Shown here piece after piece: positions 4,887 through 52,467 of a stretch of 56,449 nt of DNA. The stretch is from Planctomycetota bacterium (GTDB lineage: Bacteria > Planctomycetota > UBA1135 > GCA-002748355). Below the pieces are notes generated by a model. It did not search any database. It saw only the letters and a program-made list of their open reading frames with translations, and was not told the DNA's origin. The stretch lies in assembly GCA_024278315.1 (NCBI GenBank), contig JAJRTL010000338.1:1-56449 (forward strand), read 5' to 3'. The translations under genes were made by a program, and so were the position numbers. Positions within the stretch are counted from its first letter, which is position 1. Each line of letters opens with the position of its first letter.

Positions 4887-5093
4887 TGGCTGAATGCTCC
4901 ACTCATGAGCCGAAGCTCACGAAGTCCCTTCTGGGGGTTGGTTTCGTTGGTTTGGGGCGAAAAGTATAAGGAACTCCTCACCCGTTTCAAGCCCGTCCCG
5001 TCCCCTTTCGGGGCCAGTTGGGCATCGAACAGGGACCCCCTCCGAGGAGCGGGTGGCCCTGTATCCATCTTCTCTCTATCAAGCTTTTCTGTA

Positions 5094-9299
<4,206 letters not shown>

Positions 9300-13122: not shown

Positions 13123-13615
13123 ACTGGATCCTCGAGGATCAGACGCGACTCCCGCAAGGGAGACCAAGTGGCGGAGACCTGTGATGCAGGGACCTGCGAC
13201 CGGAGGACTCGAGGTCCAGAACCGGGAACAGGGGAGCCGCGACAACAGCGCGGCTCATTCTGGCGGTGGGCATAGTTCGAGTGCGCACCGGGTTCCCATC
13301 ACTCGGAAGCGAGGATCCCGGATTACTGCAACTGTTCGTGGAGGAGAGCTCTTCGAACAAGAGCGGTGCAGCCTCGAGAGGAATGGTGAGAAGGTCCAGA
13401 AGGGTGGATGCTCGCCCAGGATTGCTCCACGGCTGCCTGCCTCCACCCCCGAATTAGCCAGGAGATCCTAACCGATGCCGCAGGCAATGAAACCTACAGT
13501 ACATGGAATCTTCACAGGCTGGCATAAGCATTGCTGGGCCCATCCGATTCCCGATGCTGGCCAGAACCAGCACCGATATCCGGTAAGATCGGACCCCGGG
13601 GGGCCCCGGGTCGAA

Positions 13616-37047: not shown

Positions 37048-38495
37048 GGATCGAGGACAGCAAGCAGTGGCGTTATTTTGCGGCAGGGGCGCTTTGTCTC
37101 CTGGCCTTCTCGTTTTCGACTGCCTGTGATTCGGGAGCAGCCTCCAAGGGAGACGGCCACGAAGAGCACGAGGGCGAAGGGCACAAAGAGAAAGGTCATG
37201 GAGAAGAGGGCCATGAAGAAGAGGGGGCGAGCAACGAAGTCCACCTCGATGCCAAGCAACGCGAATCCGCGGGAATCAAGACGACCGTAGCCGCAAAGGG
37301 TCAAATCTCGGAGACCCTCCGTCTCGTGGCTCGCGTCGAGAGCAACGGCGACACCATCGTCCACGTCACGCCAAGGGTCGAGGGAATCGTACAGAAGATC
37401 TACAAGGGCCTGGGAGAGAAGGTCAAAGCCGGAGATCCCCTGGTGGAACTCTGGAGTATCGAGCTGGGCAACACCATCAGCTCCTACCTCGAGACGCATT
37501 CCCGACAGATCGCCGCTGAGGAGACCCTGGCCCAGGCCGAGAAACTCTTCGAAGGCCGCCTCAAGACATTGAGGAAGGTCCTGGATGGGGAGATTGCGGT
37601 AGCCCAGAAGATCTTCAACCGGGAGAAGGAACTCCAGGAGAAGAGCATCTCCACGATCCGCCCCTTCCTCGAAGCCGACAAGGAGCTGCAGAGAGCCCGA
37701 CTCTCCAAGGAGAGGGAGCTCACGGGTCTCGAGGCCGAACGGGACAGCAAACTCCTCGAACTCGAAGTCCTCGTGAGGCAGAGCAAGATCGAGGAGGAAT
37801 CGGCCCGCAATCGCTTGATCGTCCTCGGGTTCAGCAACAAGGAGGTCGAGGCCTACCATGGAGCCAGTGTCCAGAGCGGAAAGACACTCATCCGGGCACC
37901 CAGAGCAGGGATCATCCTGGATCGAGACATCACACTGAACGAGCATGTGGGGACGGATCGGACTCTATTCAAGATCCACGATCTGTCCACGATCTGGATC
38001 ATCGCTTCCGCCTACGAGCGGGACCTGAGTTCCCTTCGCACGGGTCAAGAGGTCATGGTGCACCTGGATGCCTTGCCTGGCGTGACGCTTCCAGGAAAGG
38101 TCACCCAGATCGGCTATCGCATTTCCGAAAGCACGCGAGCGGCACCCCTGCGCATCGAGCTTACCAATGCAGCCTTGAAGGAATGGCCCGAGGAGTTCCC
38201 CATGCGCCCGGGCATGTTCGGAAGCGTCGAGGTCGTGATCCGCTCATGGCAGGGCCGGGTCGTCATCCCGGAGAGCTCGTTGGTCCACGAGGGAGAGGAC
38301 AACTTCGTCTTCGTGGCCAACCCCAAGGAAGATGGTTCCTTCTTCCGCAAAAGCGTGAAAGTGAAGAGGGGAGCAGGAGACATGGTCGAGATCCTCGAAG
38401 GTGTCGACCCCGGAGACACGGTTGCCATCGATGGCGTCTTCCTGCTCAAGTCCATGGCACGTCAAGGCGAGCTCGGAGAAGGACACAGTCACTAG
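37044..38495 (+). CDS. czcB: Efflux RND periplasmic adaptor (CzcB-like) with a His/Glu-rich N-terminus
   Basis: GDGHEEHEGEGHKEKGHGEEGHEEEG followed by an MFP fold (barrel-sandwich/hairpin segments). ATG 37044 is preceded by GGAGGAAGGA. Confidence 0.85.
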   Translation: MRIEDSKQWRYFAAGALCLLAFSFSTACDSGAASKGDGHEEHEGEGHKEKGHGEEGHEEEGASNEVHLDAKQRESAGIKTTVAAKGQISETLRLVARVESNGDTIVHVTPRVEGIVQKIYKGLGEKVKAGDPLVELWSIELGNTISSYLETHSRQIAAEETLAQAEKLFEGRLKTLRKVLDGEIAVAQKIFNREKELQEKSISTIRPFLEADKELQRARLSKERELTGLEAERDSKLLELEVLVRQSKIEEESARNRLIVLGFSNKEVEAYHGASVQSGKTLIRAPRAGIILDRDITLNEHVGTDRTLFKIHDLSTIWIIASAYERDLSSLRTGQEVMVHLDALPGVTLPGKVTQIGYRISESTRAAPLRIELTNAALKEWPEEFPMRPGMFGSVEVVIRSWQGRVVIPESSLVHEGEDNFVFVANPKEDGSFFRKSVKVKRGAGDMVEILEGVDPGDTVAIDGVFLLKSMARQGELGEGHSH

Positions 38496-38577
38496 ATCGT
38501 GATGCCTCCCTCCCACAGCAGAAGCCCACGTCAGCCGCACTACCGAACCGCCTAATCTCCAGGTCAGGACAGGAAAC

Positions 38578-41500
38578 ATGATCAGTCGCATCATCGACTT
38601 CTCCTTGGACAATCGTCTTCTCATCATCATCTTCTGGTTTCTTGCGGTGGCCGTGGGCCTCCGCTCGGTCCAGGAGCTCCCCATCGATGCCGTCCCCGAC
38701 GTCACCAATGTCCAGGTGCAGGTTCTCACGAACTCACCGGGGCTGGCCCCACAGGAGATCGAACGCTTCGTGACCTTCCCCGTGGAGACCGCCATGAGTG
38801 GGCTCCCGGGGATCGAGGAGATCCGTTCGGTCTCCAAGTTCGGCCTCTCACTCGTGACAGTGGTTTTCCTGGAAGGAACGGACATCTACTGGGCACGCCA
38901 GCTGGTCGCCGAACGACTCACGGCTGCCCGGGACCTCATCCCGCAAGGCTACGGCGAACCAGAGATGGGTCCGATCTCCACGGGCCTGGGTGAGATCTAC
39001 CAGTTCGAGGTCAAGGGCCCCGGCCACTCGCCGATGGAACTGCGCACGATCCTCGATTGGAACGTGGCGTTCCAGCTACGATCCGTGCCAGGCGTGGTCG
39101 AGGTCAATGCCTTCGGAGGTGAACTCAAGACCTACCAGATCACGCTTGCAGCGGAGCGTCTGACGGCGCATGGCCTTTCGGCAGCCGACGTCTTCGAAGC
39201 CATCGAGAGCAACAACCGCAACGTGGGCGGTGGATACATCGAACATGCGGGCGAACAGTATCTGGTCCGAGGTGAGGGACTCATCAGCGGCCTGGATGAC
39301 CTGGGCAACGTGGTCGTGGGACGTGACAGCGAAGGCACGCCCATCTACGTCAAGAACATCGGAAACGTCGAGTTCGCCCCCATGATCCGTCAGGGTGCGG
39401 TGACGCGCGATGGCAAGGGCGAAGCCGTGGTGGGCATCGTCATGATGCTCATGGGCGCCAACTCCCGGACTGTCTCTGAAGAGGTACACGAGAAGATCCT
39501 CGAGATCGAGAAGACCCTCCCCGAGGGCATCAGCATCGACACCTACTACAACCGGACGGAGCTCGTCGATCGCACGATCAAGACCGTGGCCATGAACCTC
39601 CTGGAAGGTGGAGCACTGGTCATCATCGTCCTCCTCCTGCTTCTGGGAAGCCTCCGGGGCGGACTCATCGTGGCGGCAGCTATTCCACTCTCCATGATCA
39701 CCGCGTTCATCGCGATGAATGCCATGGGCCTCTCTGGCAACCTGATGTCGCTGGGGGCCATCGACTTTGGACTCATCGTGGATGGCTCGGTCGTCATGAT
39801 CGAAAACATCATCCGCTACTTGCACGACCACAAGGAGGACAAGGAACTGACACCGGTGGAGAAGGTGCGCGCAGCCTGCCATCAGGTAGCTCGCCCCGTC
39901 GTCTTCGCGGTGGGCATCATCATCATCGTCTACCTCCCCATCCTCGCCCTGACGGGAGTCGAAGGGAAGATGTTCCGCCCCATGGCGCTGACCGTGGTCT
40001 TCGCGCTTGGTTTCTCCCTGATCTGCGCCCTGACCCTGATGCCGGTCCTCGCGAGTCTCTTCTTGGTCAACGCCAAGGAAAAAGAAGCCTGGCTGTTCAG
40101 CCAGGCCAAGAGGCTCTACACGCCCATCCTGGATCGAGTGCTGGCAAGACCCGTTGTGGCCTCCTTGGGAGCCATCGTCCTCTTCGTGGCAAGTGTCGTC
40201 ATCGCGCCCTTCCTGGGGGCGGTCTTCGTTCCCAAGTTGGATGAGGGATCCATCGCCATGCAGATCTGGCGCATCCCGAGCATCTCGCTTGAGAAGTCCA
40301 ACGAGATCTCCCTGATGGCCGAGCGGATCGTGATGAAGTTCCCGGAGGTCAAGACGGTCGTCTCGCGAACGGGACGTGCGGAGATCGCCACGGACCCCAT
40401 GGGTGTGGAGATCAGCGACACGTACATCATCCTCAATCCCAAGAAGGACTGGCGTTTCGAGACGAAGGCCGAACTCATCGCAGCCTTGGACAAGGAGCTC
40501 AAGGAAGAGGTACCCGGTGTGATGTTCAGCTACTCGCAGCCCATCGAGTTGCGGGTTTCCGAACTCATCAGCGGTGTCCGATCCGACATCGCCGTCAAGA
40601 TCTTCGCATCGGGCGGTGACCTCCAGCAGATGAAGGACGTCGCGGATGAGGTGGCAGCCGTCGTCCGCCGAGTGCGTGGCCTCGAGGAAGTCAAGGTCGA
40701 GCAGACCGTGGGACTTCCGACCCTGCGAGTCATCCTGGATCGCGAGGCCATCGCCCGACTGGGCATCAACGCCCGGGATGTCCTGGATGTCGTCGAAACC
40801 GTCGGTGGACGCGGATTGGGCACGATCTTCGAAGGGCAAAAGCGCTTCTTCGTCCAGGCTCGCTTCGATCCCTCCGTCCGCTCGAACCTGCAACGCATCG
40901 GTGATCTCAAGGTCGCATCGACGCAGCTCGGGAAAGATGGAGACAGGATCCTGGTACCGCTATCACAAGTAGCCGAGCTCAGGATCGAGAATGGACCCGC
41001 CCAGATCAGTCGCGAGAAGATCGGTCGCAGGATCTCGATCGAAGCCAACGTCCGGGGCCGTGACCTGGCCTCGGCCGTCACCGAAGCACAGAAGCTCGTG
41101 GACGCGGAGATCAAGCTCCCCCCAGGCTGGACGATGACCTGGGGCGGACAGTTCGAGAACCTGGCAGAGGCGGCGGAGCGACTCACCATCCTGGTGCCCC
41201 TCGCGCTGTTCTTGATCTTCGTCCTCCTCTACACGACCTTCAACTCGCTGCCCTTGGCGGCTCTGATCTTCCTCAACGTGCCGCTGGCCGTCACCGGGGG
41301 CATCTTCGCCTTGGCGATCCGGGGCTACCCCTTCTCGATCTCGGCTGCCGTGGGCTTCATCGCCCTCTTCGGCATCGCGGTGCTGAACGGCGTGGTCCTC
41401 ATTTCCTACATCGTGGACCTGAGAGGTCGCGGAGAGAGTCCCAAGGTCGCAGCCAGGCATGCCGCCCTCGTCCGTCTCCGCCCGGTGCTCATGACCGCCA

Positions 41501-41685
41501 TGGTGGCGAGCTTCGGCTTCGTTCCCATGGCCATGGCCACCAGCGCCGGAGCCGAGGTGCAGCGTCCACTAGCCACAGTGGTCATCGGTGGGCTCGTGAC
41601 TTCTACGCTGTTGACCTTGCTTGTCGTGCCCGCGCTCTATAGTTGGCTGGCCGGAAAAGCCAAAACGAAGGAAGCAGCCAAGTGA
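38578..41685 (+). CDS. czcA: Heavy-metal efflux RND transporter (CzcA/CusA family)
   Basis: 1035 aa, 12-TM RND architecture, N-terminus MISRIIDFSLDNRLLIIIFW and GAIDFGLIVDGSVVMIEN, typical of the HME-RND family. Confidence 0.92.
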   Translation: MISRIIDFSLDNRLLIIIFWFLAVAVGLRSVQELPIDAVPDVTNVQVQVLTNSPGLAPQEIERFVTFPVETAMSGLPGIEEIRSVSKFGLSLVTVVFLEGTDIYWARQLVAERLTAARDLIPQGYGEPEMGPISTGLGEIYQFEVKGPGHSPMELRTILDWNVAFQLRSVPGVVEVNAFGGELKTYQITLAAERLTAHGLSAADVFEAIESNNRNVGGGYIEHAGEQYLVRGEGLISGLDDLGNVVVGRDSEGTPIYVKNIGNVEFAPMIRQGAVTRDGKGEAVVGIVMMLMGANSRTVSEEVHEKILEIEKTLPEGISIDTYYNRTELVDRTIKTVAMNLLEGGALVIIVLLLLLGSLRGGLIVAAAIPLSMITAFIAMNAMGLSGNLMSLGAIDFGLIVDGSVVMIENIIRYLHDHKEDKELTPVEKVRAACHQVARPVVFAVGIIIIVYLPILALTGVEGKMFRPMALTVVFALGFSLICALTLMPVLASLFLVNAKEKEAWLFSQAKRLYTPILDRVLARPVVASLGAIVLFVASVVIAPFLGAVFVPKLDEGSIAMQIWRIPSISLEKSNEISLMAERIVMKFPEVKTVVSRTGRAEIATDPMGVEISDTYIILNPKKDWRFETKAELIAALDKELKEEVPGVMFSYSQPIELRVSELISGVRSDIAVKIFASGGDLQQMKDVADEVAAVVRRVRGLEEVKVEQTVGLPTLRVILDREAIARLGINARDVLDVVETVGGRGLGTIFEGQKRFFVQARFDPSVRSNLQRIGDLKVASTQLGKDGDRILVPLSQVAELRIENGPAQISREKIGRRISIEANVRGRDLASAVTEAQKLVDAEIKLPPGWTMTWGGQFENLAEAAERLTILVPLALFLIFVLLYTTFNSLPLAALIFLNVPLAVTGGIFALAIRGYPFSISAAVGFIALFGIAVLNGVVLISYIVDLRGRGESPKVAARHAALVRLRPVLMTAMVASFGFVPMAMATSAGAEVQRPLATVVIGGLVTSTLLTLLVVPALYSWLAGKAKTKEAAK

Positions 41686-43832
41686 CGGAACGCTGGGAGT
41701 TCAAGGTCGAAGGCCTCGACTGCGCTGAGGAGGTCACCATCCTCAAGCGCAGCGTCGGGCCGATCGTCGGCGGCGAGGATCAACTCGCCTTCGATGTGCT
41801 CTCAGGCAAGATGGTGGTCTTGGCTCCCAAAGAGCCACTCACCCAGGACCAGATCGTCACCAAGGTCGCCTCTACCGGCATGAAAGCCGAGGCCTGGACC
41901 AAGGACGGGGCCAGCGCTAAAGGACGCAACCAGGCGCGCTTCTGGACGATGATCCTGAGCGGAGTCTTCGTGCTGCTTGGTTTCCTGACGCACCTCTCGC
42001 TGGGTGGCGGACTCGAAGGGGCCCTCGGTGTGGGTGAGAATCCACCGCCCGTGCCCCCCTTCGCCATCGCGCTCTATGCGCTAGCCATCGCCTTCGGCGC
42101 CTGGTTCATCCTGCCCAAGGCCTGGTTTGCGCTCAAGAGCCTGCGCGCCGACATGAACCTGCTGATGGTCATTGCCGTGATCGGCGCGGTCCTGATCGGC
42201 GAGTGGTTCGAGGGAGCGGTCGTGAGCTTTCTCTTCGCGGTTTCGCTCTGGCTCGAGGCCTGGTCGATCGGCCGTGCGCGACGTGCTGTGGATGCTCTGC
42301 TGGATCTGGGATCCCCCACCGCACGCATCCGCAACGAAGCCGGCCAGGAAATCGAGGCCGAACCCGAGACCGTGGAGGTGGGCACGAATTTCCTCGTCTT
42401 CCCCGGTGAGCGACTGCCGCTGGACGGGCGCATCGCGATGGGAACGAGCCACATCGATCAGGCCCCGATCACCGGCGAGAGCATCCCGGTGTTGAAGGAG
42501 CCCGGCGACGAGGTGTTCGCGGGCACGGTCAACGGCGAAGGGGCGCTGGAGATCGAGAGCACCAAACCGGCGCAGGGCACGGTCCTGGCACACATCATCC
42601 GCGAGGTCCGCGAAGCCGAGAGCAACCGCGCGCCGTCTGAGCAGTGGGTCGAGCGTTTCGCACGTGTCTACACGCCGGCCATCTTCGTCATGGCCCTCCT
42701 GGTCTTCCTCTTGCCGCCTCTGCTCTTCGGCGGCGCCTGGGACGACTGGGCCTACAACGCACTCGTGCTCCTGGTCATCGGCTGTCCTTGCGCGCTGGTC
42801 ATCTCGACGCCGGTCAGCATCGTCGCCGCGCTCGCGCGCGCCGCGCAGATGGGCGTCCTGGTCAAGGGCGGCCTCTACATGGAGGAACCCTCCAAGGTCA
42901 AGGCCATCGCCTTCGACAAGACCGGCACGATCACCGAGGGCAAGCCCGCGGTCGTCGACGTCATCCCTTTCGACGAGCATGACGAGGCCTGGGTGCTCGC
43001 AAGCGCAGCCGCATTGGAGTCGCGCAGCGAACATCCACTGGCCAAGGCCATCCTCGATGAGGCCAACGAGCGGGGCATCGGGTTCGAGCCCGCAACGGAG
43101 GGCCAGGCTCTGGGTGGCAAGGGCGTGCACGGCAGGATCGATGACCGCGAGTTCTGGCTAGGCTCCCACCGCTACCTCGAGGAGCGGGATCAGGAGACGG
43201 CAGAAGTGCACCAGCTCCTGGAAGACATTTCGTCCGACGGCAAGACCTCTGTCGTGCTGGGCAACGAGAGCCATGTCTGTGGAATCATCACGATTGCCGA
43301 CCGGGTGCGCCCCGAGGCGAAGGCCACATTCGATCGGCTCAGGGCCAGCGGCATCCAGGAGATCGTGATCCTGTCCGGGGACAACCAAGGCACGGTCGAG
43401 GCGGTCGGCAAGGTCGTCGGCGCCGACGAGGTGCGCGGCGAGCTTCTGCCATCCGACAAGGTTGACGCCATCGAGCAGCTGGTGACGAAGCACGGTCACG
43501 CGGCCATGGTCGGTGACGGTGTCAACGACGCCCCCGCCCTGGCGCGCGCGAGCCTCGGCATCGCCATCGGCGCCGCCGGCAGCGATGCGGCCATCGAGAC
43601 CGCCGACATCGCGCTCATGGCCGACGAAATCGAGCGCATCCCCTGGCTCATCGAACATTCCAAGCGCACGACGGGCACGATCCGCGCCAACATCATCTTC
43701 GCGCTCAGCATCAAGGCAATCTTCGTCGTCCTGGCCCTCTTCGGCGAAGCCAGCCTCTGGAGCGCCATCGCCGCCGACATGGGAGCCTCCCTCCTCGTCG
43801 TCCTCAACGGCATCCGCCTGCTACGCAGCTGA
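41682..43832 (+). CDS. P1B-type heavy-metal ATPase (Zn/Cd/Pb-like)
   Basis: CPC in GCPCALVISTP, DKTGTIT, GDGVNDAPAL, and an N-terminal HMA-like domain with GLDCAEEV (single Cys). The GTG start overlaps the czcA stop (GTGA) and is preceded by GAAGGAAG. Confidence 0.9.
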   Translation: MTERWEFKVEGLDCAEEVTILKRSVGPIVGGEDQLAFDVLSGKMVVLAPKEPLTQDQIVTKVASTGMKAEAWTKDGASAKGRNQARFWTMILSGVFVLLGFLTHLSLGGGLEGALGVGENPPPVPPFAIALYALAIAFGAWFILPKAWFALKSLRADMNLLMVIAVIGAVLIGEWFEGAVVSFLFAVSLWLEAWSIGRARRAVDALLDLGSPTARIRNEAGQEIEAEPETVEVGTNFLVFPGERLPLDGRIAMGTSHIDQAPITGESIPVLKEPGDEVFAGTVNGEGALEIESTKPAQGTVLAHIIREVREAESNRAPSEQWVERFARVYTPAIFVMALLVFLLPPLLFGGAWDDWAYNALVLLVIGCPCALVISTPVSIVAALARAAQMGVLVKGGLYMEEPSKVKAIAFDKTGTITEGKPAVVDVIPFDEHDEAWVLASAAALESRSEHPLAKAILDEANERGIGFEPATEGQALGGKGVHGRIDDREFWLGSHRYLEERDQETAEVHQLLEDISSDGKTSVVLGNESHVCGIITIADRVRPEAKATFDRLRASGIQEIVILSGDNQGTVEAVGKVVGADEVRGELLPSDKVDAIEQLVTKHGHAAMVGDGVNDAPALARASLGIAIGAAGSDAAIETADIALMADEIERIPWLIEHSKRTTGTIRANIIFALSIKAIFVVLALFGEASLWSAIAADMGASLLVVLNGIRLLRS

Positions 43833-44007: not shown

Positions 44008-44823
44008 ATGAGTCCGCGCACCCCCCTTCTGTCCACACTTCTCCTCGCCCTGCTGGGTTTCAGCTCCTGCGAGTCCATCCAGACCGCCCCCAAGGGCAGC
44101 CCGCGCATCGAAGTCGCGGTGGTCTATCGTGTGGAGGAGAGCTTCTTCTCCCCCTTCACCGATGCGATCGACAAGAAGGGAGTCCAAGCGCTCCTGCAGG
44201 AGGCAGTCCATCCCCTGGCGAATATCGGGCTGCGCTTCTACGCCATCCCGGCGGATCAGTACGGCAAGGGGCAAAAGTGGCCCGACTACATCATGACGGT
44301 CAGCGCACTGTCCTGCACTCCGGACCGGAGGGTGAAGACCACCAAGGTGAAGGTCAAGGACGAGGCCCCACAGGACAACTCCAAGGAGAAGACAGCGGAG
44401 AGCAATCCCCTCGAGACAGGCTCTGCCGACGGCAAGTCTGCGGACAGCCAACCCTCCAAGGACCAGTCCGCTGAGGACAAGCTCGCAAAGAGCAAGCCCA
44501 AGGAGATCACCCAGATCCGGGCGACGCTCTACGGGGTTTCCTGCAAGCTGGACGTCCAGTTGAGCAAAGTCCGCGTCGACGCCCCTCAACTCATCGTGGG
44601 AGAGAGCAAGGCAACGGGGTCGTCCTCGACTTCGCGCGATGACAAGAGCCAGAAGCTACCACTCACCAAGAAAGCCGACGAAGAGAACGACACTGCGCTG
44701 ACAGAGAGCATGATCCAGAGCGCATTCTCAGCTGCAGCCAAGCGCGCCTTCGTCGAGTTGCAGAAGCCCATCGACCGCGAGTTGCGGTCGTTGATCCCAC
44801 CCAAGAAGGTCGGAGCCAGGTAG
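44008..44823 (+). CDS. Hypothetical lipoprotein with a Lys/Ser/Asp-rich low-complexity centre
   Basis: MSPRTPLLSTLLLALLGFSSC lipobox. ATG 44008 is preceded by AGGTGA. Confidence 0.6.
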   Translation: MSPRTPLLSTLLLALLGFSSCESIQTAPKGSPRIEVAVVYRVEESFFSPFTDAIDKKGVQALLQEAVHPLANIGLRFYAIPADQYGKGQKWPDYIMTVSALSCTPDRRVKTTKVKVKDEAPQDNSKEKTAESNPLETGSADGKSADSQPSKDQSAEDKLAKSKPKEITQIRATLYGVSCKLDVQLSKVRVDAPQLIVGESKATGSSSTSRDDKSQKLPLTKKADEENDTALTESMIQSAFSAAAKRAFVELQKPIDRELRSLIPPKKVGAR

Positions 44824-45027
44824 CCTTCGGACTCTTCATGCCCTTGGCAGGTCGCCGACCCCGGTAAGAAGGCCTCGGATCGCAACCATGCAGAGCCAAC
44901 CGCCAGGCTTGCGGCCCTGGACCGAAAGATCAGCGTCAGACGCATCGAGGTCATGAATCGTTCGGGCTAGTGCGGGCCTGCGAGGGCAGAAGAGGATTCG
45001 CCTGCTCAGGAATCGTGCGATCCGCCC

Positions 45028-45059
45028 TTGACCCCGTACCCAGGCACAGGGTCTACAAT
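45028..45059 (+). promoter_or_regulatory. MerR-type promoter: TTGACC, 20-nt spacer, TACAAT, upstream of merR
   Basis: TTGACC at 45028-45033 and TACAAT at 45054-45059. The spacer CCGTACCCAGGCACAGGGTC contains a CCGTAC half-site and a GACCC/GGGTC dyad. Confidence 0.5.
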
Positions 45060-45090
45060 CTCCCCATCACCGAGACCGGGAGAGAATCGC

Positions 45091-45582
45091 ATGCATGCAA
45101 GACGGGAGAGAGGCAGCCTCAGGATCGGGCAGGTCGCAGAAGCCGCAGAGGTTCACATCGAGACGCTGCGCTACTACGAGCGCAAGGGGCTGCTGCCCCT
45201 GCCGCCGAGGACGCTCTCCAACTACCGGCTCTATCCCGAGGATGCGGTGCTACGCGTGCGCTTCATCAAACGGGCGCAGGAGCTGGGCTTCACGCTTGTC
45301 GAAATCCGGGAGCTACTCGAGCTGGGCCAGCAGAAGGATGGGGACTGCGCCGAAATCTGCCAGCGGGCCCGGGACAAGATCCAGGAGATCGAAGCCAAGA
45401 TCGCAAGCCTGCGGGCCATGAAGAGGAGTCTGACCCGACTCGAAGGGGCCTGTGCAGGGAGCGGTCCGCTGTCGGAATGCCCCATCCTCGAAGCCATGCA
45501 GACCGGAACCCGGAAGACAGGGATACAGAAGGCAGGCAGGAAGCCTGCCATGAGCAAGAAGAAGAAAGGAGCAAGGAAATGA
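45091..45582 (+). CDS. merR: Hg(II)-type MerR-family transcriptional regulator
   Basis: HTH segment LRIGQVAEAAEVHIETLRYYERKGLL. The Cys pattern DCAEIC ... GACAGSGPLSECPIL gives C...C-x8-C in the same positions as the MerR Hg ligands. Confidence 0.85.
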   Translation: MHARRERGSLRIGQVAEAAEVHIETLRYYERKGLLPLPPRTLSNYRLYPEDAVLRVRFIKRAQELGFTLVEIRELLELGQQKDGDCAEICQRARDKIQEIEAKIASLRAMKRSLTRLEGACAGSGPLSECPILEAMQTGTRKTGIQKAGRKPAMSKKKKGARK

Positions 45583-45839
45583 ACCAGAAGAAGATAGAGG
45601 TGTTTTCTGCAGGATGCTGTCTCTGTGACGAGACGGTAGAACTCGTCCGGAACATGGCCTGTCCCTCCTGCGCGGTCGAGATCCTCGACATGAGGAAGGC
45701 CGAGGTCGCCGAGCGCGCCAAACAACTTGGCGTGGCCCGCGTCCCCGCGGTCGTCATCGACGGCAAACTCGTGTCCTGCTGCGCCGGCACGGGCCCCGAC
45801 AAGGACGAACTCGGCAAGGCCGGTCTCGGCAAGCCCTGA
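45579..45839 (+). CDS. Small thioredoxin-fold protein (glutaredoxin-like, CCLC motif)
   Basis: MNQKKIEVFSAGCCLCDETVELV...VPAVVIDGKLVSCC. Its ATG overlaps the merR stop (ATGA). Confidence 0.7.
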   Translation: MNQKKIEVFSAGCCLCDETVELVRNMACPSCAVEILDMRKAEVAERAKQLGVARVPAVVIDGKLVSCCAGTGPDKDELGKAGLGKP

Positions 45840-45894
45840 GATTACGAGGGCGATCGCCTGATCGACTTCACCTCGCTCGCCACGACCCATTCGT

Positions 45895-46470
45895 TCATGG
45901 GTGCATCCGAGGAGTGGGCGACTCGACCTTCTGCACGGTCTTGACCAGGATGTCCACCTGACCGTCGGCCGAGGCCTGGAGCCGACCTCGCAGGCGGAGT
46001 GACTTGCCCACTTGACGCTCAAGGTCCGAATAGACAGAAGCCTCAGCCGGCTCCAGGCTCTTCTTCAGATAGAAGACCTGGATCGGCATCTCCGTCGTCA
46101 ACGAGAGACGTGCCTGACCATCGGCACTCGTGACCTTGTCAAGCTGCCCTTCGACAGCCGCTTCGGACCAGAGCAAGGGGAAGCCTGACATCTTGACCGC
46201 CTCCTGGATGGAGGCGAAGTCGAGGGGCTTGCCCTCGGCTGGTAGGAAAGTGCCCAGTCCCTTTTCGATATCGAAAGAGAAGTTGCGTACGCCAGACCGG
46301 CGCACCAAGGCCCTTTGCAGGGCCCCGCCTCACATGGATCAGGTGACGCCGCCCACCGCAATCGTGATGACGACCGGGCCCTCTGCGAGCGCCTGGTCGG
46401 TGGAAGCACCGGTAGGGCTCGCGCAGGCGAGGGCGAGGAGGGAGAGGAGGACACTGGTTTCCTTCTTCAT
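45895..46470 (-). CDS. Secreted/lipoprotein HMA-domain protein with two in-frame TGA codons at the CxxC positions (predicted selenoprotein, T-U-S-M-U)
   Basis: ATG 46470: MKKETSVLLSLLALACAS...VVITIAVGGVT-TGA(46339-41)-SM-TGA(46330-32)-GGALQRALVRRSGVRNFSFDIEKGLGTFL...IQEAVKMSGF. This gives a complete beta-alpha-beta-beta-alpha-beta HMA pattern only if both TGA are decoded. The frame is continuous: 576 nt, 191 codons plus the stop. Confidence 0.75.
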
Positions 46471-46500
46471 GAGAGGCTCTCTTGCGGCCTGGGGCCGGGT

Positions 46501-47517
46501 TCAGAAACGGGCGCGCATGCCCAGGATGAAACGGTAGTTCTCTTCGAACTGGGAACCCGGAAGTTCCAGGAGGATCGGGAGCTGCACGGCGCTCTCGAAG
46601 AGCAGGTTTTCGCTGACCAGGACCTGGATGCCAGGCGTCAGGAAGATCTTGGTGCCGCCGGAATCATAGACGGTAACGCCGCCAGCGCTGTCCTTCTCCG
46701 CATAGATCGTGTTGAGCTCCAGGACGAGGTTGACCGTCGTCTGCGTGAAGCTCACGTACTTGGCGGGGATGAGCCGGAAAACGCCTCCGATGTCGAAGCG
46801 GTAGCTGTTGCCGAAGCGGAAGTCGTTGGCCTCACTGTTGATCTTGGCAATCAGGTCGCTGTTGACCTGCCAGCGTCCATCCACACGCGTGAAAGCCACA
46901 CCCAGGATCGCGTCCATGCCACCCGACCCGCTCTGCATCGGCTGCGGCAGACGCATACCCCCATCCTCGAGATCCGTGCGCCCCACCGGCAGTTCGAGCC
47001 CGAAGATCGCCGCCGCCTCCGTGGTCTCTCCGAGCCCGGCATCCTGGTAGATGCGTGCCTTGCCCACGACCGGCACGTCACCGATGCCCTGGCTGCGCAG
47101 GGTCTCCTTCTGCCCGCTCCCGGCATTGATCCGGGTCATGCTCTTGTCCAGCCAGGGAATCGTCGCCGAGATCGTCATCTTCTCGTTGATCCCGAAGACG
47201 AGTTTCAGCAAAGCTGCATGCACCGAGAGCTCTTGCGCGCCCTTGTCCTTGTCCGTGTAGACATAGCGCGGAACGACCGCCTGGCCATTGAAGTCCACAG
47301 TGCGCGCGGACTGGGTCACGATCGTGTCATCGTAGAGCAGGCCCAGCTGGATCAGCTGGCCCTCTCGGCTCTCGGGATCGATCTCCTGGGTCCCACCCTG
47401 CTCGCTGACGCGGGCTTCAGGAACGGACACGCCGTTCGCGCAAGCAGGAAGGAGAGCCGCCGCGAGCAGAAAACAGGCTCCAAGAAGCCTGCGGGAGAAT
47501 CGAGTCTCATCAATCAT
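46501..47517 (-). CDS. Outer-membrane beta-barrel channel (resembles the 'MetA-pathway/transporter' OMP family)
   Basis: Signal peptide/lipobox LLPAC, alternating beta-strand pattern, C-terminal ...RFILGMRARF (terminal Phe). It lies 30 nt upstream of the Sec-HMA lipoprotein gene. Confidence 0.7.
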   Translation of the reverse strand: MIDETRFSRRLLGACFLLAAALLPACANGVSVPEARVSEQGGTQEIDPESREGQLIQLGLLYDDTIVTQSARTVDFNGQAVVPRYVYTDKDKGAQELSVHAALLKLVFGINEKMTISATIPWLDKSMTRINAGSGQKETLRSQGIGDVPVVGKARIYQDAGLGETTEAAAIFGLELPVGRTDLEDGGMRLPQPMQSGSGGMDAILGVAFTRVDGRWQVNSDLIAKINSEANDFRFGNSYRFDIGGVFRLIPAKYVSFTQTTVNLVLELNTIYAEKDSAGGVTVYDSGGTKIFLTPGIQVLVSENLLFESAVQLPILLELPGSQFEENYRFILGMRARF

Positions 47518-47525
47518 GGGCGCAG

Positions 47526-47557
47526 ATCCTACAGCCCGTACCCTGGTCCAGACTCAA
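47526..47557 (-). promoter_or_regulatory. Second MerR-type promoter (TTGAGT, 20 nt, TAGGAT) driving the OMP/Sec-HMA operon; probably leaderless
   Basis: Minus-strand read: TTGAGT CTGGACCAGGGTACGGGCTG TAGGAT ctgcgccc ATG. The spacer contains CCAGGGTACGG, the reverse complement of the CCGTACCCTGG-type motif in the merR promoter. Confidence 0.45.
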
Positions 47558-47798
47558 GAGATCTTCGGACAGTTGGGGCTTCGTGGCTTGCGCACAACGA
47601 CGCGCCGGCATCGGACCCTACTGGCTCATGACCATAACAGCCCTTCAACTCCTCCGAGCGGACTCGCGCTCTGCGAGTCGCAGGAAGGCCAACTCACGCG
47701 CACTGCCCTCGAAGTGCCATCGAAGATCAGAGCACGACAAGACCCACCCACTCGACAGAGAACCGTAGGACTTGGGCCATGGTTCACTCGGGGAGAGC

Positions 47799-48310
47799 TC
47801 AGGGAATCCGGATCCGACCGATCGGACTCGGCAGTGGCAGAGTGAGATTCTCATCCTCGAGCTGGATCTTCAGGTCCAGATCTCTTGGTCGTGGTCCATC
47901 CAACCTGTCTTGGTCAGCGAATCTGAACCCAAGCCCATAGGATCTCTCCTCAGGCAAGATGAGGCGCAGCAAGCCGGGCTGCCCCACGGTCCACTCTTCC
48001 AGACCCAACATATGTCCTTTGGACCAGGCCAGTACGTGGGCCACTCCCACTGGCAGCCCCGCGAAGAGCCTCGTCGTGAAACCCCTTGATCAACCACAAG
48101 CCGGTAGGCCCCGACACTCGAGCCACATCTTTCCATTTCTCATATCGTTTGAGATCCTCGATCGGTAGTCGCACGACACGAAGGCAGAATCGTCGCGACT
48201 CGTAGCCCCCCCACATACGCATGAGCCCGAACGACTCAAGGCCTCGCAACGTGCCTTGCCTCGACAGGAATGGCGCGAGATCTCCCAATGCCAACAGCTT
48301 CATCTCCACA
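47799..48310 (-). pseudogene. Frameshifted ORF of unknown function
   Basis: Frame A reads MKLLALGDLAPFLSRQ...GLWLIKGFHDEALRG and degenerates after about 48050. Frame B then reads sensibly (..LPVGVAHVLAWSKGHMLGLEEWTVGQPGLLRLILPEE...). A third fragment may continue to 47645. Confidence 0.35.
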
Positions 48311-48412
48311 CGCATGCAGAAGAGGGACCCACTCCACAACCTGGGAGCAAAGCCCCTGAGCCAAGAGCGAGACACGACGGATCGGAATCACGGGACATTC
48401 CAGGAACCCATC

Positions 48413-48430
48413 ATACCCCCCATGGGTATA
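48413..48430 (+). promoter_or_regulatory. CsoR-type operator-like inverted repeat ATACCC-N5-GGGTAT overlapping a TATACT -10-like box
   Basis: ATACCCcccatGGGTATA at 48413-48430. TATACT at 48427-48432 lies 6 nt before the ATG of the CsoR-family gene, and no SD is present. Confidence 0.45.
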
Positions 48431-48438
48431 CTGGCGTC

Positions 48439-48726
48439 ATGAAGACTGCGACCGGATATCTCGATCTCGATGCCAAGAAGCGACTCCTCAACCGACTGTC
48501 CCGTATCGAGGGGCAGATCCGGGCACTCAAGGCCATGGTGGAGGAGGAGCGCTGTGCAGACGACATCCTGGTTCAAGGCGCGGCGGCAAGGGGGGCTCTG
48601 GGCCAGTTCCTGGCCAAGATGCTGGAGGCCCACCTGAGGGACTGCGTCCACAACTGCATGGAAGGCGATCGGCTGCAGGTCTCGGAGCGGCTCATGAAGG
48701 CCGTCTCGACGGCGCTCAAGCTCTGA
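48439..48726 (+). CDS. CsoR/RcnR/FrmR-family (DUF156) metal-sensing repressor, C-H-C type
   Basis: LLNRLSRIEGQIRALKAMVEEERCADDIL...EAHLRDCVHNC, showing Cys...His-x3-Cys ligand spacing. Confidence 0.85.
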   Translation: MKTATGYLDLDAKKRLLNRLSRIEGQIRALKAMVEEERCADDILVQGAAARGALGQFLAKMLEAHLRDCVHNCMEGDRLQVSERLMKAVSTALKL

Positions 48727-48771
48727 GACACCGGAGCTCTCCAGAGCGGAACACAGGGAGGAGAAGCGATC

Positions 48772-48936
48772 ATGGACAGCGTGCAGAAGGAAGAAAAGCT
48801 CGGTCGTGTCGCTGTAACCGGCTCACTCCTGGCTGCCATCGAGGGTGGCGGCTATTCAGCAAGACTGGAGGGCCGCCCCACGAGTCCGCCCGCGGGCCAA
48901 CCCACCAAGCGTCCCACAAGTCGCCCTGGCCGTTGA
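48772..48936 (+). CDS. Small 54-aa ORF of unknown function
   Basis: Strong SD (GGGAGGAGAAG) 9 nt before the ATG. The product is MDSVQKEEKLGRVAVTGSLLAAIEGGG...; its stop TGA overlaps the TTG at 48933 of the merA frame. No recognisable MerT/MerP/MerC features. Confidence 0.3.
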   Translation: MDSVQKEEKLGRVAVTGSLLAAIEGGGYSARLEGRPTSPPAGQPTKRPTSRPGR

Positions 48937-48956
48937 GCAGGACCCGGAACGTAATC

Positions 48957-50393
48957 ATGAACGAGAAGAAGTCATCGGAACGTCCCTCCCACCTCGTCAT
49001 CGTCGGAGGCGGCTCGGCCGCCTTCTCCGCGGCCCTCACGGCCGAAGGGCTCGGTCTCGAGGTCACGCTGATCAACGAGGGCCTGCCCATCGGCGGCACC
49101 TGCGTCAATGTGGGTTGCGTGCCGTCGAAGGCCCTGCTGCGCGCAGCCGAGAGTCTGCACCGCGCGCAACACACACCCTTCGATGGGATCGGTGCGAGTG
49201 GAGAGGTCACCGACTTCGCAGCCGTCATGGCGCAGAAGCAATCCCTGGTCGAAGGGCTGCGTCAGGTCAAGTATCTGGACGTCATCTCCGGCAAGAACAA
49301 GATCCGACGCGTCGAAGGACGCGGACGATTCGTGGCCAAGGATCGGGTGTCCGTGGAGACGCAGGAAGGCACGCGCGAGATCCAGGGAGATCTCTTTTTG
49401 ATCGCGACCGGAACTCGGCCAGCTTCACCGGCGATCCCCGGGCTCGACGAGGTGCCCTGCCTGGACAACGAGTCGGCCTTCGAGCTCTGTGAACTCCCCG
49501 AGTCAATGATCGTCCTGGGCGGTCGCTACATCGCGCTGGAGATGGCGCAGATGTTCGCGCGCTTCGGCACGAAGATCACGGTCCTGCAGCGCTCGGCCAG
49601 CATCCTGCCGACCGAGAGCGAAGCGCTGACGAGCGCGCTTGCTGGCTACCTGACCCAGGAGGGACTCGACATCCAGACCTCCGTGCGCATCGAGCAAATC
49701 GAGGAGGAGGGAGGGCAGATCCTGATCCGGGCGACACAGAATGGCGAGCCCAGGGAATACCGCGCCGCCAGGCTTCTGAGCGCGCTCGGCCGCGCGCCCA
49801 ACACCGAGGGCCTGGGGTTGGAGGAGATCGGCGTCGCGCTGACCGACAGAGACTTCGTGGCGATCGACGAGACCTTGCAGACTTCCCAGCCTGGGATCTT
49901 CGCCGCAGGCGACGTCATCGATGACCCGAGCTTCGTCTATACCGCTGCCTTCGAGGGCGCGCTTGCGGTGCGCAATGGCGTCGACGGTGCTCTGGAGAAG
50001 CGCGACTACACAGCGCTGCCCTGGGTCGTCTTCACCGATCCACAGGTGGCCGGCGTGGGGCTCGACGAGAAGCAGGCCGCCGATCTGGGGCTCGTGGTCG
50101 ACAGCCGGACCCTCCCGCTGGACCAGGTGCCGCGCAGCCTGGCAGCTCGCGACACCCGCGGATTCGTCCAACTGATCCGCGATCCTGAGCGGGATGTCCT
50201 GGTCGGTGGCCGGGTGCTCGCGGCCGAGGGCTCGGAACTTCTCATGGAGATCGCAATGGCCATCCGCTACCAGATTCCCGTGCGGGAGCTGGCCCGAAGC
50301 TTCCACGCCTATCTCACTCTCTCGGAGGCGGTCAAGCTGGCGGCCATCACCTTCGAGAAGGACATCAAGGAACTCAGTTGTTGTGCCTCGTAG
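48957..50393 (+). CDS. merA: Mercuric reductase (core enzyme without an NmerA domain)
   Basis: VIVGGGSAAF (FAD), redox-active GGTCVNVGCVPSK, and the C-terminal KELSCCAS vicinal Cys pair diagnostic of MerA. An alternative TTG start lies at 48933. Confidence 0.9.
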   Translation: MNEKKSSERPSHLVIVGGGSAAFSAALTAEGLGLEVTLINEGLPIGGTCVNVGCVPSKALLRAAESLHRAQHTPFDGIGASGEVTDFAAVMAQKQSLVEGLRQVKYLDVISGKNKIRRVEGRGRFVAKDRVSVETQEGTREIQGDLFLIATGTRPASPAIPGLDEVPCLDNESAFELCELPESMIVLGGRYIALEMAQMFARFGTKITVLQRSASILPTESEALTSALAGYLTQEGLDIQTSVRIEQIEEEGGQILIRATQNGEPREYRAARLLSALGRAPNTEGLGLEEIGVALTDRDFVAIDETLQTSQPGIFAAGDVIDDPSFVYTAAFEGALAVRNGVDGALEKRDYTALPWVVFTDPQVAGVGLDEKQAADLGLVVDSRTLPLDQVPRSLAARDTRGFVQLIRDPERDVLVGGRVLAAEGSELLMEIAMAIRYQIPVRELARSFHAYLTLSEAVKLAAITFEKDIKELSCCAS

Positions 50394-50433
50394 AACGCAG
50401 GCGCACAGTCATCCTGAACAGGAGCAGCAAACC

Positions 50434-51501
50434 ATGAAGAACCAGTCCATGACAGCCGCCGCAACGCTGCTCTCGCTGGCAGCACTTCTCCCGACCGGCC
50501 TGGATGCCCAGGCCACGTCGAAGAAAGCGGCAACCGAGGGGAAGTCCCGCATCATGACCGTCGACATCACCGGTATGACCTGAGGGATGGGCTGAGCGCC
50601 GCAGGTGCAGAAGGCCCTGCAGTCCCTACCGTGGGTAGGGAAAGTCCAAGTAGATTTCGAAAGCAAGACCGCCAAGGTCGAAGTCGAGAAGACTCGTTTC
50701 GATCCGGCCAAGATCATTGCAGTCCTCACGAAGGCCGGCTATGGCGGCAAGATCCAAGCCAAGGATCTCGCGAAGGCCAAGGCAATGGACTCCGTCATCG
50801 TTTTCCGCGTCCTTGGCATGAAGAAGGCCAAGTCGGGCGCGACCTGAATGGGCTGACCGGATGCGGTCACCGAGGCCCTGGATGGGTCTCACCAAAGCAA
50901 GAAGGTCACATGGGACTACGAGAAGGATCTCATCAGGATCGAGTACGATCCCCAGAAGAGCTCTCCGGAGAAGTTGGCGGCGATCATCCGCAAGCTGGGC
51001 TACAAGGTCGAGACCGTGAAACCTGCGGACTCGAAGAAAACGGTCAGCCGCAAGGTGGTCCCGCCAAGCCTCGCCATCGGAAACCTGGCCCCGATACCGA
51101 CGAAAGCACCCGACTTCTTCCGCGAGGCCTTCGCGCGGGCGCAGAAGAGCGGACGGCCAATTGTCATCGACTTCTGGGCGACCTGGTGCGCGCCCTGCAA
51201 GAAGCTCAAGCTGCTGACGCTGAAGGACCCCAAGGTGGAGAAGATCCTGGAGTCCGTAGAACTGATCTTCGTCGATACCGATACATACCCGGAACTGGCA
51301 AAGGCCTACAGGGTGACGAGCATTCCGGACCTCCTCTTCGTCGACCGAACCGGCAGGATCGCTGACCGTCTCCGCGGATTCGAGAGCGCCGCTCCCTTCG
51401 TGAAGCGGCTGCAGAAACTTCTCGCGATCCGTCCCGCATCCCGCCTGACTTCCCGCCCTGCATCCCGCCCTGCATCTCGCCCTGCATCCAGACGACGTTG
51501 A
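50434..51501 (+). CDS. Secreted 2xHMA-thioredoxin fusion protein with four in-frame TGA codons at the metal-ligand positions (predicted selenoprotein)
   Basis: AGGAG lies 9 nt before ATG 50434. Signal peptide MKNQSMTAAATLLSLAALLPTGLDAQA. HMA1 reads ..IMTVDITGMT-TGA(50581)-GMG-TGA(50593)-APQVQKAL.. and HMA2 reads ..VFRVLGMKKAKSGAT-TGA(50845)-MG-TGA(50854)-PDAVTEAL... A Trx domain follows (FWATWCAPCKK, Cys codons at 51187 and 51196), then an (SRPA)n tail. The three track ORFs 50194-50583, 50605-50847 and 50974-51501 are all in one frame. Confidence 0.8.
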
Positions 51502-51672
51502 ACGGGAATCTCGCAGGTGGGTCGCCATCTTCTCCAAGCGCGAGTCTCGACTCTGGCCACTCGCGAGCACGGTATCCGGACGAGCGGATCGATCGGTCAT
51601 GGAGAGGGAGCAGGTGAGAGTTTCCACAACTCATTGCTTCGGACCGCCCGCCCCTCCCTTATCCTGGCCACC

Positions 51673-52467
51673 ATGAAAGTCCATCCAACTTCCATGATCG
51701 CCGAGGGCGTGGAGCTGGGTGCCGATGTCGAGGTCGGCCCCCACGCCATCATCGAAGAGGGCGCGCGCATCGGTCGGGCTTGCCAGCTGGCCTCCTACGC
51801 AATCGTCCGAGCGAACTCCGTGCTCGGCGAAGGGGTCAAGCTCGACAGCTTCGCCGTCGTCGGAGGTGAGCCCCAGATGGCCGGGTTCGATCCCATCACC
51901 CGCTCCCACGTGGAGATTGGCAATGGCACGATTCTCCGAGAAGGGGTCACGGTGCACCGGTCCAAGGACGAACAGGGAGTGACCCGCGTCGGGGCCCACT
52001 GCTTTCTGATGGGCCAAAGCCATATTGGTCATGACTGCAGAGTGGAGGATCATGTCACACTTGCCAACCACGCCCTGCTGGCTGGACATGTCAGCATCGG
52101 CACACACACCTTCGTTGGCGGCGGGGCCGCCATCCATCAGTTCTGCCGCATCGGCGAGGGTGTCATGATCGGAGGCAACACGTCCATCATGTCGGACATC
52201 CCCCCATTCACACTGGTCGCCCGTTACAATCGGCTCTACGGCCTCAATCTCGTCGGACTCCGGCGACGGGATTACTCGCGAGAGGAGATCCGCGACCTCA
52301 AGGACTGCCTGTTTCGCATCTTCCAATCCCAGGCAGGCTCTCCCCACAAGCTAGCCAAGATGGCTCTTGAGAATGGAGAGTTCGGCCAAACAGCTCCAGG
52401 CAGACGTTTCCTCGAGTTCATCATCGAGAGCAAGCGCGGCTATGCGCGCCCCGCCAACCGCGAGTAG
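51673..52467 (+). CDS. lpxA: Acyl-ACP--UDP-N-acetylglucosamine O-acyltransferase
   Basis: Left-handed beta-helix hexapeptide repeats plus the LpxA C-terminal helical domain (...NRLYGLNLVGLRRRDYSREEI...). Confidence 0.9.
   Translation: MKVHPTSMIAEGVELGADVEVGPHAIIEEGARIGRACQLASYAIVRANSVLGEGVKLDSFAVVGGEPQMAGFDPITRSHVEIGNGTILREGVTVHRSKDEQGVTRVGAHCFLMGQSHIGHDCRVEDHVTLANHALLAGHVSIGTHTFVGGGAAIHQFCRIGEGVMIGGNTSIMSDIPPFTLVARYNRLYGLNLVGLRRRDYSREEIRDLKDCLFRIFQSQAGSPHKLAKMALENGEFGQTAPGRRFLEFIIESKRGYARPANRE

Follow-up and report, generated by a model that had tools for sequence, protein, structure and literature searches.

A single 56-kb contig of a Planctomycetota metagenome-assembled genome (MAG), analysed over its whole length of 56,449 nt (the window below), carries a mercury (mer) gene island at about 44.9-51.5 kb. 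The island is probably a chromosomal Planctomycetota mercury-resistance island in partial decay, from which merTP, the gene for a fused MerT-HMA protein, has been deleted, and in which exported HMA proteins containing selenocysteine (Sec, U) are accessories. By sequence comparison, this island type is common to other Planctomycetota and Verrucomicrobia. The original prediction, made from the same DNA, had held that merT, merP and merC are absent and apparently replaced by Sec-HMA envelope proteins, an outer-membrane channel and thioredoxin-fold modules. The absence is borne out here, and the replacement is not: a 54-aa open reading frame (ORF) beside merA is the remnant of merTP, and the same type of Sec-HMA gene stands next to MerT and MerP in other mer operons. 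The more interesting residue is a family of HMA(UxxU)-thioredoxin (Trx) proteins tied to mer genes, together with CsoR-type control of mer genes in Planctomycetota and Verrucomicrobia.

The assignment as a genuine mercury locus is supported by MerA (478 aa, positions 48957-50393, + strand), a catalytic core with the active-site motif CVNVGC, a C-terminal CC and no NmerA domain, which scores 504.3 bits on TIGR02053, above the equivalog cutoff of 454.45, and keeps the Hg-specific residues. The best solved structure for it is the Tn501 MerA core (1ZK7; E 2e-107, end-to-end alignment), of which Cys136, Cys141, Tyr194, Tyr535 and the C-terminal Cys pair are all retained; the alignment reads GGTCVNVGCVPSK, places KY opposite Y194 and YLT opposite Y535, and shows a C-terminal LSCCA. 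The ratio of nonsynonymous to synonymous substitution rates (dN/dS) of merA is 0.14 against the sibling locus described below. The regulator MerR (163 aa, 45091-45582, + strand; Pfam MerR domains) is a MerR-family metal sensor and 41.5% identical to Tn21 MerR. Its Cys86, Cys121 and Cys130, with 35- and 9-residue spacing, are equivalent to C82, C117 and C126 of Tn21, so the three cysteines on which a mercury-type merR had been proposed are present at MerR spacing. This spacing is shared with PbrR and is thus not Hg-specific, and the best NCBIfam model, TIGR02051, gives 132 bits, under its equivalog cutoff of 150.85, with ZntR, CueR and CadR/PbrR ranking next and close behind. The merR gene overlaps by ATGA with trx3 (86 aa, 45579-45839, + strand; PF13192), which encodes a Cys-rich thioredoxin fold (CCLC) lacking a signal peptide and scores 31 bits, below the cutoff, on TIGR00412 (MTH895/ArsE-like). 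The merR-trx3 pair recurs at another metagenome locus (L157), where the trx3 counterpart is 64% identical.

Inner-membrane mercury importers were sought in the island in two ways. With profile models, no NCBIfam match to MerT, MerP, MerC, MerE or MerF at E<=1 was found on translating 44800-51700 in all six frames, with Cys put for TGA and known genes masked; in the same scan a divergent MerT fusion from a related locus was picked up by four MerT-type models, which shows that such genes can be seen. A tblastn search of the whole window with Tn21 MerT, MerP, MerC, MerE and MerD and two MerT-HMA fusions gave accepted matches only in merR, in the HMA domains and at both ends of the 54-aa ORF. A weak match to Tn21 MerT (E 0.023) lies inside the membrane domain of czcA and was dismissed. 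In this and the other family scans, local translations were used with TGA entered as Cys and TAA/TAG as X, and Sec was likewise entered as Cys in the scored proteins; the scores of selenoproteins on models are therefore those of their Cys substitutes. On this basis the window HMA proteins score 45 and 18 bits on the MerP model TIGR02052, against a cutoff of 92.55, and the GMTCxxC motif of MerP is replaced in their domains by GMT-U-xxx-U, GAT-U-xx-U and GVT-U-xx-U.

The origin of the gap is seen in the sibling, a contig found in two samples (L086 and L087) that carries the closest database MerA (88% identical) and is syntenic with window positions 41.4-55.7 kb at 69-86% DNA identity, with a gap inside merTP. 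The sibling operon has the order csoR-merTP-merA-HMA2Trx, and its merTP, located between csoR and merA, encodes a 224-aa protein that passes both Pfam MerT (46.8 bits, cutoff 32.9) and HMA (54.2 bits). In the window, the alignment with L086 9280-9954 leaves the 54-aa ORF (48772-48936, + strand), which matches neither Pfam MerT nor HMA. Its first 23 residues (MDSVQKEEKLGRVAVTGSLLAAI) align to the N-terminus of sibling MerTP and its last 31 (EGGGYSARLEG...SRPGR) to the C-terminus; the deleted part held the membrane helices that bear the CC pair, the pair of cytoplasmic Cys and the motif GMTCEAC. The DNA alignment falls into two blocks (window 48403-48840 with L086 8903-9348, and window 48820-51423 with L086 9838-12473). 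At the break points are two imperfect repeats of 18 nt, about 13 of them shared, which encode SLLAAI and TLLKAI and in L086 lie exactly 510 bp apart, making the loss a clean in-frame deletion of 170 codons. This alignment identifies the 54-aa ORF as what an in-frame deletion has left of a MerT-HMA fusion gene, of which the sibling has an intact copy. Such a fusion adjoins merA in all 8 other sampled loci with a core-only MerA (57-88% identical), the window being the exception, and as a consequence of the deletion the window has no Hg(II) importer. Because the scar is present and UxxU-HMA-Trx genes coexist with MerT and MerP elsewhere, the missing inner-membrane step reads as a recent loss and not as a new route.

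Other parts of the island have been lost on the sibling side. The sibling keeps only an 18-codon merR fragment (L086 5847-5900; 72% identical to window MerR residues 94-111) and has no trx3; its intact NHL-repeat gene corresponds in position to about 0.85 kb of the window to which no gene is assigned (47558-48400). On sequence comparison, the same island is losing different pieces in different lineages. The unassigned stretch has weak codon periodicity, and the frameshifted ORF proposed there could not be confirmed as a gene: neither the six frames of the stretch nor a frameshift-corrected conceptual protein matches any Pfam or NCBIfam family, and there is no similarity to the sibling DNA or to the sibling NHL-repeat protein at the same spot. 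Read on the minus strand and corrected for two frameshifts, it yields a conceptual protein of 222 aa that has no homologues.

Two genes of the island encode the HMA proteins with in-frame TGA codons. HMA1 (45895-46470, - strand; PF00403) consists of a signal peptide, one HMA domain with the motif T-U-SM-U (TGA at 46341-46339 and 46332-46330) and a fast-evolving C-terminal domain. HMA2Trx (50434-51501, + strand; PF00403 twice and PF00085) consists of a signal peptide, HMA-a with the motif T-U-GMG-U (TGA at 50581 and 50593), HMA-b with the motif T-U-MG-U (TGA at 50845 and 50854), a thioredoxin domain (WCAPC) and a Pro/Ser/Arg-rich tail. The three TGA-containing HMA domains recognized earlier are thus present, each with two TGAs, and all six of these codons are at the exact CxxC positions of the domains. 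The TGAs are best read as selenocysteine codons, judging from their conservation, Cys homologues, dN/dS and the hairpins that follow them. All six are kept in the sibling (in HMA1 as U-SI-U), the four of HMA2Trx are also kept in Planctomycetota homologues only 41-47% identical, and HMA1 homologues form a series at the motif from UxxU through CxxU (L157) to CxxC (L091). Against the sibling, dN/dS is 0.31 for HMA2Trx residues 1-141, which include the four TGA sites, 0.17 for the rest of that protein, and 0.17-0.32 for the HMA part of HMA1. The genetic code is standard, for TGA is also the stop codon of merR, trx3, csoR and HMA2Trx.

In RNA folding, every UGA pair is followed by two hairpins, which are candidates for elements like the selenocysteine insertion sequence (SECIS). 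Those of HMA1 (46287-46326, - strand) recur in the sibling, where one G.U pair is G-C instead, a weak comparison of n=2 sequences. The hairpins 3' of the HMA-a pair (50601-50641, + strand), compared over five lineages, have 90.7% of cells paired and three pairs changed on both sides, with the register of the first helix shifted in the window lineage. At the HMA-b pair (50854-50890, + strand), helix 1 (50854-50869) holds the second UGA and helix 2 (50872-50890), a SECIS-like candidate, begins 15 nt past it. Over 67 distinct HMA-b sequences 91.8% of cells are paired and five pairs are changed on both sides, and none of 500 shuffles reaches the observed covariation score. The pair 33-41 occurs as UA (34), CG (29), UG (3) and GC (1), and is never unpaired; one partner is the third base of an Ala codon, where the change is synonymous, and the other lies in a Glu/Gly codon, a coupling that selection at the protein level does not explain.

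A search with the DNA pattern K/R-S-G-A-[TIV]-TGA-xx-TGA-P-[DEN]-x-V-xx-A-L, for which we roughly estimate less than one chance match, finds at least 120 metagenome stretches, mostly short contigs, of which 80 loci were fetched. Nearly all of the 80 encode a signal peptide, HMA(UxxU), a linker and a thioredoxin domain (WCxPC), some with two HMA domains or added Trx or PDZ domains. More than 80 loci, spread over several phyla, have a TGA pair at the CxxC positions. None of the NCBIfam models reaches its cutoff on the family members tested, the best partial matches being the DsbD gamma domain and NF041115. A scan of genome contigs with generic thioredoxin patterns gave mostly unrelated thioredoxins, with family members only in L006-L010. 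In the two-HMA subfamily (the window, L086, L001, L005, L006, L096, L123 and L173), the first HMA always has U-x3-U and the second always U-x2-U. Further candidate selenoproteins are encoded beside the HMA(UxxU)-Trx gene in L008 (about 8240-8790) and downstream of it in L116, L137 and L139; they are thioredoxin-like and have LLSPV-U-PHC or SPG-U-PMC motifs (UxxC) through an in-frame TGA.

The neighbours of the HMA(UxxU)-Trx genes include MerT in 21 of the 80 loci, MerR in 16, an outer-membrane protein (OMP) in 4, CsoR in 3, and MerA and NHL in 2 each. A recurrent order is merR-X-merT-HMA(UxxU)Trx, in which MerT ends about 0.3 kb upstream of the HMA gene, and in L008 merT is immediately 5' of it. 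In L124, a low-GC canonical operon, a divergent merR is followed by merT, merP, merA (with NmerA) and HMA(UxxU)Trx. The occurrence of the gene beside MerT and MerP in mer operons of unrelated lineages argues that it is an accessory and not a substitute. The gene-neighbourhood comparison that had been suggested for the replacement idea thus goes against it, with merT at 21 of 80 family loci and a MerT-HMA fusion at 8 of 8 related merA loci; the sibling and L124 carry MerT and a MerP-type HMA in addition to Sec-HMA-Trx. Many family loci are without merA, so the mercury link is frequent and not universal, and the metal is assigned from the neighbours.

The OMP (46501-47517, - strand; PF13557), a predicted outer-membrane beta-barrel, is the first gene of an OMP-HMA1 unit. 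It is 86% identical in the sibling, with a dN/dS of 0.13, and 36% identical to the OMP that ends an operon in a Didemnitutus (Verrucomicrobia) MAG (L091), where merR is followed by a divergent merTP-merA-NHL-HMA(CxxC)-OMP(PF13557). In L157, merR-trx3 is accompanied by an HMA(CxxU) protein with an HMA1-like C-terminal extension, an OMP, a TlpA-like thioredoxin and a convergent HMA(UxxU)Trx, and no merA or merT is found within 14 kb. Further OMP and NHL examples are found in L146 and L165. The earlier grouping of OMP, periplasmic HMA, Trx-fold and MerR parts accordingly recurs in L091, L157, L146 and L165; read across these loci, the envelope parts accompany the mer core and do not replace it. 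The NHL beta-propeller, periplasmic HMA and PF13557 barrel form a block that is seen repeatedly within or next to mer operons (L091 7510-9834, L086 5994-8749, L157 11168-12640, and also L146 and L165).

In the remaining details of the layout, the gene list given by the original prediction (merR, a CCLC thioredoxin gene, OMP, HMA1, CsoR, the 54-aa ORF, merA and HMA-HMA-Trx) was found in full at the positions it gave. Its divergent OMP to Sec-HMA operon is a real unit, which is convergent to merR-trx3 and divergent from csoR. The description of HMA1 as a lipoprotein was dropped: LALAC is a non-canonical lipobox and its Cys is missing in homologues, and HMA1 is therefore described only as exported. 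Signal peptides are present on the HMA proteins. The gap between merA and HMA2Trx is 40 nt, and the terminator call there is negative.

Regulation of the island is likely divided, as read from the promoter and operator sequences, with MerR acting on merR-trx3 and OMP-HMA1, and CsoR acting on csoR-(merTP)-merA-HMA2Trx. The putative merR promoter (45028-45059, + strand) has TTGACC, a 20-nt spacer, TACAAT and an imperfect 7-4-7 dyad, CCCGTAC-CCAG-GCACAGG, and the putative OMP promoter (47526-47557, - strand) has TTGAGT, a 20-nt spacer, TAGGAT and a degenerate mer-operator-like dyad, TCTGGAC-CAGG-GTACGGG. A standard promoter scan with 16-18-nt spacers reported nothing; these promoters were read by eye, and their 20-nt spacers and 7-4-7 dyads are like those of the MerR-type promoters of L091, L001 and L008. 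Both window dyads are degenerate, that of OMP having 3 mismatches to the Tn21 operator (TCCGTAC-N4-GTACGGA, verified in plasmid R100 between merR and merT). The sibling has TCTGTAC-CCGG-GTACGGA in the same place, with 1 mismatch.

The predicted CsoR-type operator ATACCC-CCCAT-GGGTAT (48413-48429, + strand) overlaps a TATACT -10 box directly 5' of csoR (48439-48726, + strand), which encodes a 95-aa CsoR/RcnR-family repressor (PF02583, 77.9 bits against a cutoff of 22.8; dN/dS 0.11). In an alignment with InrS and the CsoR proteins of Streptomyces and Geobacillus it keeps the Cys39/His65/Cys69 set, residues that we take to correspond to C75, H100 and C104 of S. lividans CsoR. The ATACCC-N5-GGGTAT box, which is also found 5' of csoR in L086, L088 and L092, resembles the published GC-rich palindromic operators of CsoR. 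By this reading merA would be placed behind a CsoR-type operator and not a MerR operator, a point missing from the original prediction. Among 9 sampled Planctomycetota/Verrucomicrobia loci with a core-only MerA, the gene before merA or merTP is csoR in 5 and merR in 3, and ArsR is linked in 1. The csoR gene precedes merA or merTP at window 48413-48726, L086 8903-9226, L088 3040-3363, L092 5640-5970 and L216 5668-5967; the box is seen in all upstream sequences read (all but L216). The L092 locus, a Phycisphaerales csoR-merA-merTP operon, lies among phage-like genes (GpA nuclease, portal and capsid; 3078-5366 and 10879-13443), flanks that hint at prophage-borne transfer of mer genes. The regulators named in a 2012 survey covering 272 mer operons are MerR, ArsR and MerD only (PMC3466566). 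Literature searches turned up no link between CsoR and mer, and neither CsoR-run mer operons nor the HMA(UxxU)-Trx family was found described in the literature searched.

The observed gene content, merTP deletion, export signals, UGA conservation, RNA structure and recurrent neighbourhoods suggest the following scheme, in which we infer the metal, the direction of its transfer and the redox role. The ancestral layout, reconstructed from the sibling, would have comprised a CsoR-repressed csoR-merTP-merA-HMA2Trx operon and OMP-HMA1 behind a mer-operator-like promoter, with a merR-trx3 unit that is intact only in the window. In the window lineage merTP was then cut down to its 54-codon scar by the loss of 510 bp, in frame, between the imperfect 18-nt repeats. 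HMA1 and HMA2Trx would be exported selenoproteins in which paired Sec (UxxU or UxxxU) replaces the MerP-like CxxC, and the paired selenolates may bind Hg(II) very tightly in the periplasm. The fused DsbD-gamma-like Trx domain would keep or return the selenols reduced, acting on a diselenide or selenylsulfide, and the PF13557 barrel may pass Hg species across the outer membrane. In the relatives, bound metal would be handed to MerT or MerTP and reduced by MerA, to which, lacking NmerA, the cytoplasmic trx3 product may carry Hg(II). In the window genome this inward hand-over is broken, so MerA would be limited to Hg(II) entering by other routes, and the envelope proteins would only buffer.

We put it at somewhat short of an even chance that HMA(UxxU)-Trx proteins form a broad periplasmic double-Sec family of Hg(II) or soft-metal scavengers wired to MerT, MerR and sometimes MerA, and that an Hg(II)-responsive CsoR-family repressor governs mer operons. 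The former would be a family of soils and sediments in several phyla with a predicted built-in reductase. The CsoR family is known for sensing Cu, Ni, formaldehyde and persulfide.

A true alternative route, in which the Sec-HMA proteins, outer-membrane barrel and Trx-fold modules replace MerT, MerP and MerC and feed MerA, would account for the lack of any MerT, MerP, MerC, MerE or MerF in the 56-kb window, for the recurrence of the envelope set without merT or merA in L157 and for the purifying selection on all envelope parts. It is nevertheless improbable, since none of these proteins is one that spans the inner membrane, a deletion scar of merTP is present in the form of the 54-aa ORF, and merT accompanies the family in 21 of 80 loci, with the sibling and L124 having MerT and a MerP-type HMA alongside the Sec-HMA-Trx gene. 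The deletion itself might be an assembly artefact or a minority variant, with intact merTP in the organism, as its junction lies between similar 18-nt repeats, where assemblers and polymerases can slip, and is known from a single MAG contig. We doubt this strongly: the repeats are short, imperfect and far under read length, the junction is in frame with window-specific substitutions on both flanks, and the other lineage-specific losses at the island (merR-trx3 in the sibling, NHL in the window) make gene loss the pattern here. It is unlikely that the island serves, in place of mercury, a soft metal such as copper (Cu(I), Ag(I), Au or Cd/Pb), with CsoR as a Cu(I) sensor, the HMA proteins as copper chaperones and a MerA-like enzyme acting on a different substrate. 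The C-H-C CsoR with its CsoR-type box, HMA domains that score equally on CopZ and MerP models, the adjoining czcCBA and P1B-ATPase genes, and a MerR below its cutoff with ZntR, CueR and CadR close all fit such a role, but MerA exceeds the equivalog cutoff with every Hg-specific residue, both Tyr and the C-terminal Cys pair, the MerT domains of relatives pass Pfam MerT, the sibling operator is 1 mismatch from that of Tn21, and the canonical merRTPA operon of L124 holds the same accessory gene. Least credible, and very improbable, is that the in-frame TGAs are true stops and the HMA genes pseudogenes or split genes, with expression confined to the downstream Trx and C-terminal ORFs. TGA pairs at exact CxxC positions in more than 80 loci of several phyla, purifying selection over the domains that hold them, structured RNA with compensatory changes after the sites, Cys-containing homologues and a curated UxxU selenoprotein family already known (NF041115; PMC13188914) all oppose it, even though gene callers split the HMA genes in every database record.

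Several further points weigh against a decaying mercury island with Sec-HMA accessories as the explanation. None of tRNA-Sec, selA, selB and selD lies within the window, a point that also favours true stops, and the reading requires that both of two UGAs only 9-12 nt apart be decoded. A scan of the window with Rfam at gathering thresholds matched only tRNAs, the lack of a curated match at the hairpins being uninformative. About two thirds of the family loci with enough flank show no mer genes, and 78 of the 80 are without merA. The CsoR ligand set is of the Cu(I) type beside czcCBA and a P1B-ATPase, and MerR is under its equivalog cutoff with cysteines spaced as in PbrR. No source of electrons turned up for the thioredoxin domain in the periplasm, the deletion is known from one assembly, and the mercury role of these proteins is a prediction from sequence.

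Compared with the Tn21/Tn501 mer operon, the island has the same MerA core signature residues, a three-Cys MerR and putative long-spacer promoters with a 7-4-7 dyad that is degenerate in the window and close to the Tn21 operator in the sibling, and its ancestral layout likewise had a periplasmic HMA protein and a MerT importer. It differs in lacking NmerA, merD, merE and merC, in MerT and MerP being fused in the relatives and deleted in the window, in the CsoR gene and box before merA, and in the added PF13557 OMP, Sec-HMA proteins and Trx modules. The CsoR resembles copper repressors in its PF02583 fold, C-H-C ligands and palindrome over the -10 region, whereas the genes it is predicted to control are merTP and merA and not copZ/copA. 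The sibling merTP shares the MerT and HMA architecture of the MerTP fusion NF033556 and the MerT/CopZ fusion-like selenoprotein NF045683; unlike the latter it is a Cys protein, and the window keeps only 54 codons, with no membrane helix or metal-binding Cys.

The HMA domains resemble NF041115 in their fold, in the change of both metal-binding Cys to Sec (UxxU) and in a predicted heavy-metal role. Two of the three window domains are UxxU and HMA-a is UxxxU. In contrast to the 74-residue single domain of NF041115, the window proteins are exported and multi-domain, and against its cutoff of 95 bits HMA2Trx scores 63 (two domains), HMA1 20 and other family members 35-48. In the reviews PMC9312934 and PMC13188914, the UxxU metal-binding selenoprotein is the "putative mercuric reductase" predicted by Zhang and Gladyshev in 2007. 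Among DsbD gamma and TlpA/ResA thioredoxins, the Trx domain of HMA2Trx aligns best with the DsbD C-terminal domain and shares the WCxPC motif, but the DsbD membrane domain is absent and Trx is fused to metal-binding selenoprotein domains.

For annotation, the island shows that an apparently transporter-less mer locus can be a fresh deletion mutant, and that a small ORF beside merA can be the scar of a lost gene. For mercury biology, it adds likely accessories beyond the Tn21 paradigm (a paired-Sec exported HMA, a fused thioredoxin, an outer-membrane barrel and a CsoR-type regulator), which recur in environmental bacteria dominating soils and sediments with Hg cycling. If selenolates bind Hg(II) here, as Hg-Se chemistry predicts, the selenium and mercury cycles would be linked at the protein level. 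The genes also offer a natural test case for the decoding of two UGA codons 9-12 nt apart in bacteria.

Some features of the surroundings may be added. Directly upstream of the mer island (35626-43832) are czcC-czcB-czcA-like efflux genes and a CPC-motif P1B-ATPase, whose N-terminus is a GLDCAEE HMA-like domain and whose ORF start overlaps the end of czcA. The czcA end, the ATPase and a lipoprotein downstream of it are kept in the sibling. Housekeeping genes lie downstream of the island. EF-Tu homologues assign the organism to Planctomycetota; its ribosomal proteins fell into singleton clusters. The merTP remnant (48880-48933) and HMA2Trx (51440-51498) both end in Pro/Thr/Ser/Arg-rich tails, with PTSRP and PASRP repeats.

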